The position numbers were made by a program, and so were the translations under genes. From NCBI RefSeq assembly GCF_057098645.1, contig NZ_CM169472.1: a stretch of 64,000 nt of DNA; one strand, written 5' to 3'. Positions 1,767-30,624 of the stretch are shown here, piece after piece (within the stretch, counting starts at the first letter, position 1; each line of letters begins with the position of its first letter). The notes below the pieces were generated by a model. That model saw only the letters and a list, made by a program, of their open reading frames with translations. It was not told the DNA's origin and searched no databases.

Positions 1767-2063
1767 ATGAACGCTTATTACATTCAGGATCGTCTTGAGG
1801 CTCAGAGTTGGGCGCGTCACTACCAGCAGATCGCCCGTGAAGAGAAAGAGGCAGAACTGGCAGACGACATGGAAAAAGGCCTGCCCCAGCACCTGTTTGA
1901 ATCGCTATGCATCGATCATTTGCAACGCCACGGGGCCAGCAAAAAAGCCATTACCCGTGCGTTTGATGACGATGTTGAGTTTCAGGAGCGCATGGCAGAA
2001 CACATCCGGTACATGGTTGAAACCATTGCTCACCACCAGGTTGATATTGATTCAGAGGTATAA
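1767..2063 (+). CDS. gam: Gam (RecBCD inhibitor), 98-aa form
   Basis: Translation [39 protein letters not shown]... recognised as lambda Gam. Directly upstream of bet. Confidence 0.9.
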
Positions 2064-2068
2064 AACGG

Positions 2069-2854
2069 ATGAGTACAGCACTCGCAACGCTGGCTGGGAA
2101 GCTGGCTGAACGTGTCGGCATGGATTCTGTCGACCCACAGGAACTGATCACCACTCTTCGCCAGACGGCATTTAAAGGTGATGCCAGCGATGCGCAGTTC
2201 ATCGCATTGTTGATCGTCGCCAACCAGTACGGCCTTAATCCGTGGACGAAAGAAATTTACGCCTTCCCTGATAAGCAGAACGGCATCGTTCCGGTGGTGG
2301 GCGTTGATGGCTGGTCCCGCATCATCAATGAAAACCAGCAGTTTGATGGCATGGACTTTGAGCAGGACAATGAATCATGTACATGCAGGATTTACCGCAA
2401 GGACCGTAATCATCCGATCTGCGTTACCGAATGGATGGATGAATGCCGCCGCGAACCATTCAAAACCCGCGAAGGCAGAGAAATCACCGGACCGTGGCAG
2501 TCGCATCCCAAACGGATGTTACGGCATAAATCCATGATTCAGTGTGCCCGTCTCGCCTTCGGATTTGCTGGTATCTATGACAAGGATGAAGCCGAGCGCA
2601 TTGTCGAAAATACTGCATACACTGCAGAACGTCAGCTGGAACGCGACATCACTCCGGTTAACGATGAAACCATGCAGGAGATTAACACTCTGCTAATCGC
2701 CCTGGATAAAACATGGGATGACGACTTATTGCCGCTCTGTTCCCAGATATTTCGCCGCGACATTCGCGCATCGTCAGAACTGACACAGGCCGAAGCAGTG
2801 AAAGCTCTTGGATTCCTGAAACAGAAAGCCACTGAGCAGAAGGTGGCAGCATGA
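2069..2854 (+). CDS. bet: Bet (Red beta single-strand annealing protein)
   Basis: 261-aa translation [48 protein letters not shown]... recognised as lambda Bet. Confidence 0.92.
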
Positions 2855-3531
2855 CACCGGACATTATCCTGCAGCGTACCGGGATCGACGTGAGAGCTGT
2901 CGAACAGGGGGATGATGCATGGCACAAATTACGGCTCGGCGTCATCACCGCTTCAGAAGTTCACAACGTGATAGCAAAGCCCCGCTCAGGAAAGAAGTGG
3001 CCTGACATGAAAATGTCCTACTTCCACACCCTGCTGGCTGAGGTTTGCACCGGTGTGGCTCCGGAAGTTAATGCTAAGGCGCTGGCCTGGGGAAAACAGT
3101 ACGAGAACGACGCCAGAACCCTGTTTGAATTCACTTCCGGCGTGAATGTTACTGAATCCCCGATCATCTATCGCGACGAAAGTATGCGTACCGCCTGCTC
3201 TCCGGATGGATTATGCAGTGACGGCAACGGCCTTGAGCTGAAATGTCCGTTTACCTCCCGGGATTTCATGAAATTCCGGCTCGGTGGTTTCGAGGCCATA
3301 AAATCAGCTTACATGGCCCAGGTGCAATTCAGCATGTGGGTGACTCGAAAAGATGCCTGGTACTTTGCCAACTATGACCCGCGCATGAAGCGTGAAGGCC
3401 TGCATTATGTCGTGGTCGAGCGGGATGAAAAATACATGGCTGGTTTTGACGAGATGGTGCCGGAGTTCATCGAAAAAATGGACGAGGCACTGGCTGAAAT
3501 TGGTTTTGTATTTGGGGAGCAATGGCGATGA
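2851..3531 (+). CDS. exo: Exo (Red alpha 5'-3' exonuclease)
   Basis: 226-aa translation [40 protein letters not shown]... recognised as lambda Exo. Start overlaps the bet stop (ATGA). Confidence 0.92.
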
Positions 3532-3710
3532 AGCATCCTCACGATAATATCCGGGTAGGCGCGATCACTTTCGTCTACTCCGTTACAAAGCGAGGCTGGG
3601 TATTTCCCGGCCTTTCTGTTATCCGAAATCCGCTGAAAGCCCAGCGGCTGGCTGAGGAGATAAATAATAAACGAGGGGCTGTATGCACAAAGCATCTCCT
3701 GTTGAGTTAA
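3522..3710 (+). CDS. Small phage ORF (62 aa), lambda orf61/orf63/orf60a-region equivalent
   Basis: Start overlaps the exo 3' end. Position matches the small ORFs downstream of exo in lambda. No function known. Confidence 0.45.
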
Positions 3711-3874
3711 GAACGAGCATTGAGATTGCACATAGCCTTGCTCAAATTGGAGTCAGGTTTGTGCCAATACCAGTAGAAACAGACGAAGAATTTCATACGT
3801 TAGCCGCATCCCTTTCACAAAAGCTGGAAATGATGGTGGCGAAAGCAGAAGCAGATGAGAGAGACCAGGTATGA
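3683..3874 (+). CDS. Small phage ORF (63 aa)
   Basis: Overlaps the preceding ORF, which is typical phage gene packing. Acidic C-terminus. Confidence 0.45.
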   Translation: MHKASPVELRTSIEIAHSLAQIGVRFVPIPVETDEEFHTLAASLSQKLEMMVAKAEADERDQV

Positions 3875-3954
3875 CAACCACTGAATGCATTTTTCTGGCA
3901 GCGGGCTTCATATTCTGTGTGCTTATGCTTGCCGACATGGGACTTGTTCAATGA
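3871..3954 (+). CDS. Putative 27-aa hydrophobic micropeptide
   Basis: ATG at 3871 overlaps the upstream stop (ATGA). Translation MTTTECIFLAAGFIFCVLMLADMGLVQ is one predicted transmembrane helix. Its stop overlaps the next ATG (3951). Confidence 0.3.
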   Translation: MTTTECIFLAAGFIFCVLMLADMGLVQ

Positions 3955-4166
3955 CACCTCAGCAAGAAAACGCCCTTCGCAGTATTGCCCGTCAGGCTAA
4001 TTCTGAAATCAAAAAAGCCAGACAGCAGTTTCCGGATAAAAACGTCGATGACATTTGCCGTAGCGTACTGAAGAAGCACCGCGAAACGGTAACGCTGATG
4101 GGATTCACACCGACTCACTTAAGTCTGGCAATCGGTATGTTAAACGGCGTCTTTAAGGAACGGTGA
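3951..4166 (+). CDS. Small phage ORF (71 aa)
   Basis: Internal ATG of ORF 3885..4166, chosen because it is translationally coupled to the upstream micropeptide. Translation MTPQQENALRSIARQANSEIKKARQQF... Confidence 0.4.
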   Translation: MTPQQENALRSIARQANSEIKKARQQFPDKNVDDICRSVLKKHRETVTLMGFTPTHLSLAIGMLNGVFKER

Positions 4167-4264
4167 ACATGAAAAGCAAAATCATCAGGGAGCTACAGGC
4201 TCCTTTTTTATTATTCGCATTCACCCTCAAGCGTATTAACCAACAATTCAGGGATTAATGAAAG

Positions 4265-4486
4265 ATGGCAGATATCATTGATTCAGCATCAGAAATTGAA
4301 GAATTACAGCGCAATACAGCAATAAAAATGCGTCGCCTGAACTACCAGACTGTATCCGCAACTCATTGTTGTGAGTGTGGCGATCCGATAGATGAACGAA
4401 GACGCCTGGCAGTTCAGGGTTGTCGGACTTGTGCAAGTTGCCAGGAGGATCTGGAGCTTATCAGTAAACAGAGAGGTTCGAAGTGA
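4265..4486 (+). CDS. TraR/DksA-family C4 zinc-finger protein (lambda orf73-like)
   Basis: 73 aa with CxxC...CxxC (CCECGDPIDERRRLAVQGCRTCASC), the DksA/TraR zinc-ribbon signature. Confidence 0.7.
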   Translation: MADIIDSASEIEELQRNTAIKMRRLNYQTVSATHCCECGDPIDERRRLAVQGCRTCASCQEDLELISKQRGSK

Positions 4487-5169
4487 GCGAAATTAATTAT
4501 CAGGCACTGCGTGAAAAGGCAGAGAAAGCAACTAAAGGAAGCTACATCGTAGGGCATACATCTGTTAACCAGCACGGCAATTTAACAGGAGTTTTTGTTT
4601 GCCAAAAATGGAAAGGAGAACCCGGTGGTGTGATTGCGGAATGTCATGTTAACTGCCTGGTTGAAACAGATGTTCAGGCTTATGCAAACGCTGAATTTAT
4701 TGCTGCTTTTAATCCAAATGTTGCGCTGGCACTACTGGATGAACGGGAAAGAAACCAGCAATACATCAAACGCCGCGACCAGGAGAACGAGGAGATTGCG
4801 CTTACGGTTGGGAAGCTGCGCGTTGAGCTGGAAGCCGCAGAGAAGCGCAACGCAAAATTACAAAGCGAGAATGCATACATCCGCAACCGGTACAAAGAAC
4901 TGGACCTGTTAATCGGGAAAAACATTCTGGTCATGCAGGCTGCCATTATCGAATGGCAATCGACTGGCGACGCTAAAAGCGGACTGGCATGGATTTATAA
5001 CACACTGTTTGGCCCAGGCGAATTGCCGGACGAATCTGAGAAAGATGCTCAGGCCTACTTTAATCGCAAATATGCACCGATTGACGAAAAGCTTATGGCG
5101 CTTCACAAGTGGTTTTGGGAACAAAGTGAAGCCGAGCGCGCCGCTGGCATTTGCATCAAAGGAGAGTGA
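4483..5169 (+). CDS. Ea22-like coiled-coil accessory protein (228 aa)
   Basis: Central heptad-rich segment (ALTVGKLRVELEAAEKRNAKLQSENAYIRNRYKELD). Position between exo and xis as for lambda ea22. Function unknown. Confidence 0.5.
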   Translation: MSEINYQALREKAEKATKGSYIVGHTSVNQHGNLTGVFVCQKWKGEPGGVIAECHVNCLVETDVQAYANAEFIAAFNPNVALALLDERERNQQYIKRRDQENEEIALTVGKLRVELEAAEKRNAKLQSENAYIRNRYKELDLLIGKNILVMQAAIIEWQSTGDAKSGLAWIYNTLFGPGELPDESEKDAQAYFNRKYAPIDEKLMALHKWFWEQSEAERAAGICIKGE

Positions 5170-6160: not shown

Positions 6161-6415
6161 ATGCAGACAATCATCTATCAGATAACCCCCAGCAAATGGT
6201 GTACGGAGAGAGTCCTCATTGCATCAACAGGGCTAAAGCCTGGCACCATCGAGCGAGCCAGAAGAAAGTCATGGATGCAGGGAAAAGAATACCGCCATTA
6301 CGCTGTAGAAGGTGATCCGGGGCATTACAGTGAATGCCTGTACAACATCGAAGAAATTATGCGATGGATCGAAAACCAGAAACAACCAGGTGCCAAAAAT
6401 GCAAGTTCCGGTTAA
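6161..6415 (+). CDS. xis: Excisionase-like DNA-binding protein
   Basis: 84-aa basic protein immediately upstream of int, as expected for a phage Xis. Assignment is by position and composition, not by strong sequence recognition. Confidence 0.5.
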   Translation: MQTIIYQITPSKWCTERVLIASTGLKPGTIERARRKSWMQGKEYRHYAVEGDPGHYSECLYNIEEIMRWIENQKQPGAKNASSG

Positions 6416-6448
6416 CCTGTTAATGCTCCTGGACGTCTGGGAGGTTTT

Positions 6449-7735
6449 ATGAGTAACGCATCATACCCGACAGGCGTTGAAAACCATGGAGGATCACTCC
6501 GTATATGGTTTCACTATAATGGCAAACGTGTCAGAGAAAACCTCGGTGTTCCTGACACCGCCAAAAACCGGAAGATCGCTGGTGAGCTTCGCACTTCTGT
6601 TTGTTTTGCAATCAGAATGGGGAGTTTCGACTACGCCGCGCAGTTCCCTAATTCCCCTAACCTGAAACACTTTGGTCTGGGAAAAAGAGAGATAACCGTT
6701 AAGGCACTTTCGGAAAAATGGTTGGACCTTAAGAAAATTGAGATTTGTACGAATGCACTTAACCGTTACCAGTCAGTAATTAAAAACATGTTACCAATGT
6801 TAGGTGAAAAAAAACTGGTTTCATCCATAACAAAAGAGGATTTACTTTTCGTAAGGAGAGATTTGTTGACCGGTTACCAAAAGCTTTCTAATGGAAAGAC
6901 TTCTTCCATAAAAGGGCGCTCAGTGGTCACGGTAAACTACTATATGACAACCATAGCTGGAATGTTTCAATTTGCAACAGATAATGGTTATACCTCAGGA
7001 AACCCATTTAACGGTCTGGCTCCCTTAAAAAAGTCCAAGGTAAAACCAGATCCTCTCACCCGTGACGAATTTATTCGTTTTATTGAGGCTTGCCGTCATC
7101 AACAAACAAAAAACCTGTGGATTCTCGCTGTATACACGGGTATTCGTCACGGGGAGTTGGTATCGCTGGCATGGGAAGATATAGACCTTAAAGCAAGGAC
7201 TATAACCATCCGTAGAAATTATACAAAACTTGGCGAATTCACTCCACCAAAAACCGATGCTGGCACCGGAAGGACAATTCATCTGGTTCAACCAGCTATT
7301 GATGCTCTTAAAAGCCAAGCGGAAATGACCATGCTTGGAAAGCAACATTCTGTAGAGGTAAAGCAGAGGGAATATGGGAGAACTGCTGTGCATAAATGTA
7401 CTTTTGTTTTTAGCCCTCAGGTAATAAAACAGCAGCTGTTGTCTGGACCTCACTACAAAGTTGACTCCATCAGGGAGTCATGGACAAGTATCTTAAAACG
7501 CGCAGGTCTGAGACACAGAAAATCGTACCAATCCAGGCATACTTATGCATGCTGGTCACTTGCCGCTGGAGCTAATCCTAGTTTTATCGCAAGCCAGATG
7601 GGCCACACAAACGCACAAATGGTATTCAATGTTTACGGAGCATGGATGAAAGACAACAATCACGAACAGATAGAACTCCTTAACAAAAGACTATCTGAAA
7701 GTGTCCCATGTATGCCCCATAAGAAAGTGGGGTAA
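6449..7735 (+). CDS. int: Phage integrase, tyrosine recombinase family
   Basis: 428 aa. C-terminal catalytic region with conserved Arg/His and terminal Tyr (RHTYACW...GHTNAQMVFNVYGAW). Last phage gene before the host junction. Confidence 0.9.
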   Translation: MSNASYPTGVENHGGSLRIWFHYNGKRVRENLGVPDTAKNRKIAGELRTSVCFAIRMGSFDYAAQFPNSPNLKHFGLGKREITVKALSEKWLDLKKIEICTNALNRYQSVIKNMLPMLGEKKLVSSITKEDLLFVRRDLLTGYQKLSNGKTSSIKGRSVVTVNYYMTTIAGMFQFATDNGYTSGNPFNGLAPLKKSKVKPDPLTRDEFIRFIEACRHQQTKNLWILAVYTGIRHGELVSLAWEDIDLKARTITIRRNYTKLGEFTPPKTDAGTGRTIHLVQPAIDALKSQAEMTMLGKQHSVEVKQREYGRTAVHKCTFVFSPQVIKQQLLSGPHYKVDSIRESWTSILKRAGLRHRKSYQSRHTYACWSLAAGANPSFIASQMGHTNAQMVFNVYGAWMKDNNHEQIELLNKRLSESVPCMPHKKVG

Positions 7736-7773
7736 AATAAAAACTTGTAAAATCAGTTAGTTTACCCTTAATC

Positions 7774-8373
7774 CCTGTCACGTTACGCGCGTGGCAGAGG
7801 CGTTACGGATTGCTGAAACCGCAACGGACAGACGGCGGTCATCGGCTGTTCAACGATGCCGATATTGACCGGATCCGCGAGATCAAACGCTGGATCGACA
7901 ACGGCGTGCAGGTCAGCAAAGTTAAAATGCTGCTCAGTAATGAAAATGTTGATGTGCAGAACGGCTGGCGCGATCAGCAAGAAACATTACTGACTTACCT
8001 GCAAAGCGGCAATCTACATAGCCTGCGAACGTGGATCAAAGAGCGCGGTCAGGATTACCCCGCCCAGACACTCACCACACATCTGTTTATTCCTCTGCGC
8101 CGACGGCTTCAGTGCCAACAACCGACTCTCCAGGCGCTGCTGGCGATCCTCGACGGCGTACTGATCAACTACATCGCCATTTGTCTGGCTTCGGCACGTA
8201 AAAAACAGGGTAAAGATGCGCTGGTGGTTGGCTGGAATATTCAGGATACCACCCGTCTGTGGCTGGAGGGCTGGATTGCCAGTCAACAAGGATGGCGCAT
8301 TGATGTCCTCGCCCACTCGCTCAATCAACTACGCCCTGAACTATTCGAAGGCCGTACATTGCTGGTGCGGTGA
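7774..8373 (+). pseudogene. mlrA: mlrA (yehV) MerR-family curli regulator, 3' fragment lacking N-terminal HTH codons
   Basis: In-frame translation from about 7774 reads PVTLRAWQRRYGLLKPQRTDGGHRLFNDADIDRIREIKRW..., which matches MlrA from roughly residue 17 onward. Upstream sequence is phage (int). The ORF-track start at 7810 is a TTG. Confidence 0.8.
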
Positions 8374-8511
8374 AAATCGAACCTCCGCCCAACAGCAGCA
8401 ACTCACCAGTTGGCAAGAACAAGGCCATGATATTTTCCCACTCGGCATTTAATGATTCGTTAACAAATGCGCTTTACTGTACAATCCTTTCGTTAACATA
8501 AGGAGTGCATT

Positions 8512-17725: not shown

Positions 17726-17898
17726 GATGAGCATTCAGATAGTGGTTCACGCGCACGGGTTGCGCACCGCCGGAGTAAGGATTTACTGAGGCTAGCGACG
17801 CCATCATAACGAGCAAAAAGTGCGATCGTCAAAGGAGAATCGTGAGGAAATGCTGCATTGCTGACATTTACGCCAGCAATGCAACGTCAAAGAACTTT

Positions 17899-29365: not shown

Positions 29366-29560
29366 CGCATCCGGCATTTGGTTCCTGTCGCCGGATGCGG
29401 CTTGAACGCCTTATCCGGCCTACAAAACCATACAAATCAGTATGTTGAGCTCATTGTAGGCCGGATAAAACGCGCCAGCGTTGCATCCGGCATTTGGCTC
29501 CTGTCGCCGGATGCGGCGTGAACGCCTTATCCGGCCTACAAAACCACACAGATCATGATG
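29366..29560. repeat. BIME: cluster of 3-4 REP elements in alternating orientation
   Basis: Repeated gccggatgcggc(g/t)tgaacgccttatccggcctacaaaacc units and an inverted copy, between the convergent preA and mglC. Confidence 0.8.
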
Positions 29561-29598: not shown

Positions 29599-30609
29599 TC
29601 ACTTCTTACGCGCGTACTTCAGTGAATCCAGCGCTACGGCGAAGATAATAATCGCCCCTTTGATGATGTACTGCCAGTATGGGTTTACGCCGATATACGT
29701 CAGGCCATAGTTGATGACGGTAAAAATAATTACCCCGGTCACCACGCCAATCACCGTCCCCACACCGCCGCTGAACGATACACCGCCTACCACGCACGCC
29801 GCGATAGCATCCAGTTCATACATAAAGCCGAGGTTGTTGGTGGCAGAGCCGATACGTCCGGCTTCTAACATCCCGCCAAAGGCATAGAACACGCCAGACA
29901 ACGCGTAGATCATCAGCAGGTTCAGGCCGACGTTGACACCAGATACTTTTGCCGCTTCCGGGTTACCGCCAATGGCAAAAATGTTCTTACCGAAGCGGGT
30001 TTTGTTCCACAACACCCAGACGAACGCCACCGCAATCAACGCGTAGAAGGTGATGTAAGAGAGACGGAAACTCCCCAGCGCGACAAAGCCCTGAGCAAAG
30101 GTAGAGAAGCCACTGTCAAAACCAGAAATTGGCGACGCCCCGACAAAGTCGTAATAGAGCGAGTTGATGCCATAGACGATGATCATCGTGCCGAGCGTGG
30201 TAATGAACGGCGTCACGTTGAGATAAGCGATAATCAGACCGTTGATCAAACCGATCACCGCACCAATGGCACAGACAATCAGAATAACCAGCGCAATCGG
30301 CATCGTCGCCATTTCCGGGAACACTTTGTTGGCGTTATCCATGGACTGCAATAACGTCGCCGCTACTACTGCCGCCAGCCCCACCTGGCGACCTGCAGAA
30401 AGGTCGGTCCCCTGGGTGACAATTAACCCTGCCACGCCGAGCGCGATAATAATACGCACCGATGACTGGGTGAGAATATTACTTAAGTTCAACAGACTTA
30501 AAAATGTTGGGTCCTGGAAAATAATAATCGCCAGCAAAACTAAAAGAACGACGTAAATACCGCCCTCTTTCAGGTAAGTAAGAAAACTTTTCTTATTTAA
30601 CGCACTCAT
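29599..30609 (-). CDS. mglC: Galactose/methyl-galactoside ABC transporter permease
   Basis: 336-aa polytopic permease, last gene of mglBAC. Confidence 0.9.
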   Translation of the reverse strand: MSALNKKSFLTYLKEGGIYVVLLVLLAIIIFQDPTFLSLLNLSNILTQSSVRIIIALGVAGLIVTQGTDLSAGRQVGLAAVVAATLLQSMDNANKVFPEMATMPIALVILIVCAIGAVIGLINGLIIAYLNVTPFITTLGTMIIVYGINSLYYDFVGASPISGFDSGFSTFAQGFVALGSFRLSYITFYALIAVAFVWVLWNKTRFGKNIFAIGGNPEAAKVSGVNVGLNLLMIYALSGVFYAFGGMLEAGRIGSATNNLGFMYELDAIAACVVGGVSFSGGVGTVIGVVTGVIIFTVINYGLTYIGVNPYWQYIIKGAIIIFAVALDSLKYARKK

Positions 30610-30624
30610 GGGAAGCCCCTAATC

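Follow-up and report, generated by a model that had tools for sequence, protein, structure and literature searches.

The window is a stretch of 64,000 nucleotides from contig NZ_CM169472.1 (assembly GCF_057098645.1), and it begins within a prophage. The genes follow the order gam, bet, exo, orf60a (DUF1317), orf63 (DUF1382), orf61, orf73, ea22-like, DUF551, DUF4222, xis, int, and mlrA. The gene under study is orf73. The main features are:

1767..4166, + strand: upstream genes of the leftward (pL-type) operon, gam, bet, exo, orf60a, orf63, and orf61 (ORFs and near-identical annotated loci)
4265..4486, + strand: coding sequence of the lambda Orf73 orthologue, including the TGA stop (ORF list, PF01258, identity with lambda, WP_000763383.1)
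4483..5169, + strand: ead/Ea22-like gene, 228 aa (ORF list, RefSeq arrangement, lambda)
6161..7735, + strand: excisionase and tyrosine integrase at the end of the prophage, followed by the interrupted mlrA (ORFs, RefSeq annotation)

The synteny exo-orf60a-orf63-orf61-orf73-ea22, upstream of xis/int, is the same in lambda, in O55:H7, and in the annotation of phi24B. Likewise, phi24B and 933W, where Orf73 is called a 'putative C4 zinc finger protein', present the gene order of the window. A conserved exo-xis block has been described for lambda, phi24B, and 933W (PMC8614690). Judged from its sequence, this locus is that block in a lambdoid prophage which has integrated into mlrA (yehV). The original prediction described orf73 as carried among accessory genes, and the exo-xis genes are those accessory genes.

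The GTG start of the ea22-like gene overlaps the stop of orf73 (GTGA, 4483-4486). This overlap suggests a translational coupling of the two genes. In lambda, orf73 is likewise found between orf61 and ea22, with the t2 hairpin upstream and the same 4-base GTGA overlap with ea22. The ea22-like protein has 228 aa, versus 182 aa in lambda. DUF551 and DUF4222 stand where lambda has ea8.5 and orf55.

In the window, gam, bet, exo, xis, and int all have intact ORFs. More precisely, bet encodes 261 aa (2069-2854, + strand), and it is frameshifted in the annotation of the 98.8%-identical prophage of O55:H7 USDA5905 (L002:2069-2850). The mlrA remnant (7736-8457) lacks 5 bp at about 8362/8363 compared with O55:H7 USDA5905, which corresponds to one unit of the direct repeat TGGTG. 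It is this remnant that adjoins the integrase, and the deletion causes a frameshift near the 3' end. The first 360 bases of the window show no meaningful similarity to the N region of phi24B before the shared downstream ORF.

The Rfam search of the window gave no match bearing on orf73. It found the thermoregulator of the cIII mRNA (Lambda_thermo, 1402-1460, + strand, 88.5 bits), where the cIII gene of the same operon begins. The matches in the host chromosome are naRNA4 (nucleoid-associated, REP-derived; 29459-29536, - strand) and a Peptidase-S11 cis-regulatory motif (17730-17810, - strand). The tRNA scan of the window found none.

We then describe the signals for expression around orf73:

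3592-3614, + strand: terminator-like hairpin within orf60a, equivalent to the predicted t1 (consensus scan)
4182-4187 and 4206-4214, + strand: boxes of the BPROM-predicted promoter 'p1', TCATCA and TTTTATTAT (identical to the table of PMC4195576 and to lambda)
4187..4215, + strand: terminator-like hairpin (4187-4205) and T-run in the gap between orf61 and orf73, equivalent to the predicted t2 (consensus scan)
4250..4254, + strand: possible Shine-Dalgarno AGGGA, 10 nt upstream of the ATG (identical in lambda; inferred from the sequence)

The intergenic DNA upstream of orf73 is nearly identical to that of lambda, with the hairpin and T-run and a purine-rich stretch before the ATG. The purine-rich GAAAG lies immediately 5' of the start codon. 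Both hairpins have exactly the sequences of t1 and t2, the terminators predicted in lambda and phi24B (PMC4195576). An own promoter for orf73 was considered as well. The p1 boxes are present, but they overlap the t2 hairpin, and the consensus scan detected neither p1 nor any other sigma-70-like site upstream of orf73 on the + strand. We treat p1 as unproven.

By analogy with lambda, orf73 would be expressed from pL with antitermination; pL, N, and nutL lie beyond the window. For lambda orf73, ribosome profiling (where the protein appears as 'Orf2310') and early pL-driven expression are cited in PMC9239242 and PMC8614690. In lambda, the orf73/ea22 mRNA is lower than that of the upstream ORFs; in phi24B it is high, especially after H2O2 (PMC4195576).

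The ORF at 4265-4486 (+ strand) has an ATG start, 73 codons, and a TGA stop, and it is intact. Its product is MADIIDSASEIEELQRNTAIKMRRLNYQTVSATHCCECGDPIDERRRLAVQGCRTCASCQEDLELISKQRGSK. Reading the sequence again bore out the position, the length of 73 aa, and the CxxC...CxxC zinc ribbon that the original prediction gave for this gene. The elements of the coding sequence are:

4271..4288, + strand: DxxDxA motif at the N-terminal tip, codons 3-8, a tip that in TraR extends to the active-site region of the RNA polymerase (read from the sequence; conservation in the clade, lambda mutants)
4367..4441, + strand: C4 zinc ribbon, codons 35-59, with C36, C53, and R46-R47 (alignment with TraR of PDB 5w1s/6n57, Pfam, conservation, pLDDT)
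4370-4372 and 4421-4423, + strand: codons 36 and 53 of the two extra cysteines

The zinc ribbon consists of C35-E-C-C38, 17 residues, and C56-A-S-C59 (CxxC-17-CxxC). In the alignment with TraR of the F plasmid, C35, C38, C56, and C59 pair with the zinc ligands C37, C40, C58, and C61. Loss of these four ligands on realignment had been named beforehand as the result that would tell against the TraR/DksA reading, and all four align with the ligands of TraR. Two further cysteines, C36 and C53, were absent from that earlier description. They correspond to positions 38 and 55 of TraR and are the two extra cysteines of lambda Orf73. The N-terminal DxxDxA motif is D3-I-I-D6-S-A8, and R46-R47 are aligned to R48-R49 of TraR.

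The comparison with F TraR shows the same size, the same three-element architecture, the DxxDxA tip, the CxxC-17-CxxC spacing, and the arginine pair. However, the identity is only about 33%, TraR is encoded on a conjugative plasmid and the protein of the window on a phage, and TraR does not have the two extra cysteines. The window protein and lambda Orf73 also present the variant ExxRL in place of the ExxRK of TraR. Like lambda Orf73, the window protein would be expected to share with TraR the site on the RNA polymerase (RNAP) and the independence from ppGpp.

DksA and YbiI have in common with the window protein the PF01258 zinc finger and, by analogy, probably the binding to the secondary channel of the RNAP. 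[quoted passage not shown] In contrast, the window protein has half this size and a single N-terminal helix, and it is predicted to be independent of ppGpp, as is lambda Orf73.

The searches of family models agree with this comparison. The Pfam model PF01258 (zf-dskA_traR) matched residues 33-64 with 37.8 bits, which passes the gathering cut-off of 24.9 (E = 1.9e-9). PHROG 54, 'DksA-like zinc-finger protein', matched residues 1-71 (E = 6e-26). When phmmer was run against proteins of known structure, E. coli YbiI (2kgo) and F TraR (5w1s, 6n57) were the sole credible matches in sequence; the alignment with the TraR chains of the RNAP complexes 5w1s/6n57 covers residues 1-64. The scores of the DksA-type NCBIfam models were far under their cut-offs, and the 73-aa protein lacks what defines DksA proper, that is, about 150 aa and an N-terminal coiled coil with a DxxDxA tip. 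It has the features of the TraR type. These are a length of about 70-75 aa, one N-terminal helix that replaces the coiled coil of DksA, the zinc domain, a C-terminal helix, the DxxDxA motif (defined as a motif of this type in PMC9239242), and an arginine pair equivalent to R48/R49 of TraR. The sequence thus supports a TraR-type member of the DksA/TraR family.

The model TIGR02419 (C4_traR_proteo) gave 55.1 bits, 4.6 bits short of its trusted cut-off of 59.7. We considered this miss as an argument against membership in the TraR type. As a control, with the same NCBIfam library, lambda Orf73 also failed (54.7 bits), and F TraR passed (81 bits). Since the validated lambda Orf73 fails too, this cut-off shuts out the whole Orf73 clade and is uninformative on function. 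The argument was discarded. On the other hand, NF010268, the equivalog model of F-plasmid TraR, gave 24.4 bits and its cut-off is 108. By sequence comparison, the 73-aa protein is a homologue of TraR and not TraR itself.

We obtained an AlphaFold2 model from an alignment of 46 sequences and compared it with the PDB using Foldseek. The mean pLDDT is 77.9. It reaches about 89-93 over residues 31-70 and is low (55-70) at the two ends, the N-terminal tip and the final residues. The modelled helices span residues 8-27, 44-49, and 57-71. The best PDB matches were YbiI and TraR (6n57_M, TM 0.57 over 72 columns; 5w1s_M), then DksA and DksA2. Beneath them, the matches have low probability. The model differs from RNAP-bound TraR by an rmsd of 4.2-4.7 Å. 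This agrees with the 4.02 Å of the published AlphaFold model of lambda Orf73, which the authors attribute to helix angles that differ between the free and the bound state (PMC8614690). A TraR-like fold is therefore what the model predicts.

A short CxxC...CxxC pattern occurs in many unrelated proteins, and the weak tail of the Foldseek matches includes ribosomal zinc-ribbon proteins. For this reason, one may ask if this is a small zinc-ribbon protein of a generic kind, with no binding to the RNAP, for instance, a DNA- or RNA-binding zinc finger. This explanation is scarcely tenable. The match to TraR is full-length and goes beyond the ribbon, the DxxDxA tip and the arginine pair are conserved, and the protein shares 94.5% identity with lambda Orf73, for which RNAP binding has been demonstrated. 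Moreover, the PF01258 and PHROG 54 matches and the dN/dS value given below place the cysteine pattern beyond chance. We consider the generic zinc ribbon effectively refuted and continue with the TraR-type protein.

The closest relatives come from phages. We searched 50,697 phage records with tblastn, and 447 of them match the 73-aa protein. The lambda copy (30395-30613, - strand) is 94.5% identical (69/73) over the full length of 73/73. The comparison with lambda orf73, suggested beforehand, thus revealed a direct orthologue. It has the same length, the same DxxDxA tip and C4 ligands, and both extra cysteines. From the window to lambda, the four substitutions in the translated locus are Y27H, T29A, V30I, and A49V, and they are located in helix 1, the linker, and the globular domain. 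The window allele is 100% identical to the copies of several records of Stx1- and Stx2-converting phages (H26-H29). The phi24B copy is 95% identical, with the differences I4L, Y27H, T29A, and V30I. We found no second copy of orf73 in the 64-kb window by tblastn, versus two in phage 933W.

In bacterial genomes, the protein WP_000763383.1, 'TraR/DksA family transcriptional regulator', from the RefSeq annotation of E. coli O55:H7 USDA5905, is identical (100%). The 222-base gene was matched in 3,295 of the 5,426 complete E. coli genomes (about 61%), and a single genome has as many as 6 copies. Nearly all these copies carry the annotation 'TraR/DksA family transcriptional regulator'.

The closest complete genome is that of strain 14EC001, with 99.8% identity over the first 12 kb. 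Its copy of orf73 (L003:3287-3505) is flagged by PGAP as an incomplete pseudogene. In the alignment, this results from a single change, TGA to TGG, with loss of the stop. A pseudogene reading was therefore considered for the window copy and rejected. The stop loss is specific to 14EC001, and both the window and O55:H7 USDA5905 retain the TGA, so the window copy of orf73 is intact. In the 14EC001 prophage, the portal and tape-measure genes are frameshifted, and there is an IS3 insertion. The region from Q to the holin (L003:21725-25612) has no annotated stx; it contains tRNA-Ile, TerB-family, DUF3927, and SASA esterase genes.

We made two analyses of constraint on the protein. First, conservation was computed over 92 full-length members of the clade. 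The residues of the DxxDxA motif are highly conserved (D3 98%, D6 97%, A8 99%), and so are the zinc ligands (C35 100%, C38 97%, C56 93%, C59 92%) and the arginine pair (R46 97%, R47 97%). The four differences between the window and lambda fall in columns that rank with the most variable ones of this alignment. Second, the Nei-Gojobori comparison with lambda counted 8 synonymous and 4 non-synonymous differences (dS 0.188, dN 0.024). The ratio of 0.13 indicates purifying selection.

These values bear on the possibility that orf73 is an intact but silent passenger, that is, that the prophage is defective or never induced and the protein at present does nothing for the host or the element. The window covers just the left end of the prophage, with pL and N beyond it. 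In addition, there is decay in the lineage, seen in the frameshifted portal and tape-measure genes, the IS3, and the stop-loss orf73 of 14EC001. However, the start, stop, and motifs of the window orf73 are intact, the dN/dS is 0.13, and gam, bet, exo, xis, and int are intact. We consider a silent passenger improbable.

Previous work studied lambda Orf73 directly (Gopalkrishnan et al., mBio 2022; PMC9239242). The protein complements a dksA-null strain on minimal medium. Purified, it competes with labelled DksA for the RNAP, with half-maximal competition at 0.65-1 µM. For the inhibition of rrnB P1, the IC50 without ppGpp was about 50 nM; rpsT P2 is inhibited too. The variants D3N and D6N are much less active, and D3A/D6A is also impaired. 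Expressed from pL in a single-copy defective prophage, lambda Orf73 reduces the pre-rRNA to 29% and the rpsT mRNA to 45%. It slows growth, and the plating efficiency goes down about 10^4-fold. The lambda lytic promoters tested in that work were unaffected by Orf73 (all in PMC9239242).

The effect on rRNA promoters had been proposed as the test for the gene of the window. Such a test has already been performed on the 94.5%-identical lambda protein (PMC9239242). The window allele differs from the assayed protein at 4 of 73 positions, all of them non-critical, and from the sequence we infer that it behaves in the same way.

Activation is a different matter. TraR activates thrABC, argI, and rpoH P3, whereas the activation of these promoters by lambda Orf73 is weak if any; the authors tentatively invoke the extra cysteines (PMC9239242). 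The proposed likeness to TraR holds in that the protein is a homologue at the DksA/TraR site of the RNAP. It does not extend to a full functional copy of TraR, because lambda Orf73 barely activated these three host promoters.

Taken together, the gene is very probably the orthologue of lambda orf73 carried by a lambdoid prophage in mlrA, expressed from pL, whose product binds the secondary channel of the RNAP and inhibits rRNA and r-protein promoters. The steps would be the following. After prophage induction or infection, orf73 would be transcribed within the long leftward early pL operon, 3' of gam-bet-exo-orf60a-orf63-orf61. N-type antitermination would read through t1 and t2, and translation is probably coupled to that of the ea22-like gene. 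The protein, predicted to consist of the N-terminal helix, the C4 zinc ribbon, and the C-terminal helix, would enter the secondary channel of the host RNAP at the DksA/TraR site. There, the DxxDxA tip (D3, D6, A8) may come near the active-site region. R46 and R47 would touch the rim helices and β'Si3, and the C-terminal helix would touch the βSi1 insertion. These residue-level contacts are carried over from the structures of TraR. Strong inhibition would then strike promoters whose open complexes are short-lived (rRNA P1, r-protein), host growth would slow, and resources could go to phage production.

This biochemical mechanism has no serious competitor; what is in dispute is the physiology. 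With the same binding to the RNAP, the main role of Orf73 might be to bias the phage toward lysogeny and host survival, and not toward lytic yield. In PMC8614690, Zdrojewska et al. (2019) are cited for a deletion of orf73 in lambda and phi24B that lowered host survival after infection and the efficiency of lysogenisation. The same authors reported a lower phage yield with orf73, an opposite result acknowledged in PMC9239242. Moreover, orf73 is co-transcribed with cIII and with the int/xis functions. However, after mitomycin C, the phage yield of wild-type lambda lysogens is 3-4 times that of D3A/D6A or in-frame deletion mutants (PMC9239242). Since D3A/D6A is non-polar and the deletion is in frame, this 3-4 fold cut in yield speaks against a mainly pro-lysogenic role, as does the early lytic expression of orf73. 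The two roles are compatible, and which of them applies may differ between infection and induction. A main role in lysogeny is possible but doubtful in our view.

The main target could also be host replication. Here, Orf73 would block initiation at oriC, directly or through a lowered transcription of dnaA, as a member of the cluster orf73-ea22-ea8.5-orf55. Earlier work, as it is quoted in PMC9239242 (its reference 21), ascribes inhibition of the initiation of host replication to this cluster. In vitro, lambda Orf73 inhibits dnaA P2 and P1 at high concentration (IC50 of about 0.42 and 1.7 µM, respectively; PMC9239242). Nevertheless, these values are about 10-40 times those for rrnB P1, and the dnaA mRNA fell weakly if at all with orf73 in a single-copy prophage (PMC9239242). 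An effect on replication may be indirect, via the shutdown of rRNA transcription. [quoted passage not shown]

One point is mildly unexplained, the clade-specific conservation of C53. This cysteine is kept in 90% of the 92 members of the clade, versus only 29-36% for the flanking Q51 and R54. TraR and YbiI carry a valine at this position. C36 is conserved in just 41% of the clade. The conservation of C53 may be relevant to the capacity of Orf73 to inhibit without activating. A bolder explanation is that C53 is a functional fifth ligand, forming an alternative or redox-sensitive zinc site (C53-x2-C56-x2-C59), and that Orf73 is perhaps inhibition-only or responsive to oxidative stress. We consider it very unlikely. 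If true, such a redox site would tie in with the H2O2-specific rise of the orf73/ea22 mRNA and with the exo-xis-dependent induction of phi24B by H2O2.

Nothing in this feature is new. The gene is an ordinary copy of a phage regulator that has been characterised before, and the NCBI pipeline gives it the correct name. The reading as a TraR/DksA-like zinc finger stands, given the PF01258 score above the cut-off, the alignment with TraR, and the orthology to lambda Orf73. The reprogramming of host transcription, proposed for the gene as a candidate host-takeover factor, has been shown for the orthologous lambda Orf73 (PMC9239242). However, the gene is not a new candidate, as it is known, named, and very common.

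For annotation, orf73 is a useful marker of the conserved exo-xis block in a lambdoid prophage of mlrA; Stx-converting phages belong to this type of prophage. The reports conflict on whether Orf73 pushes the phage toward lysis or lysogeny. In Stx-converting phages, the shutdown of host transcription by Orf73 could affect the yield of phage and toxin after induction.
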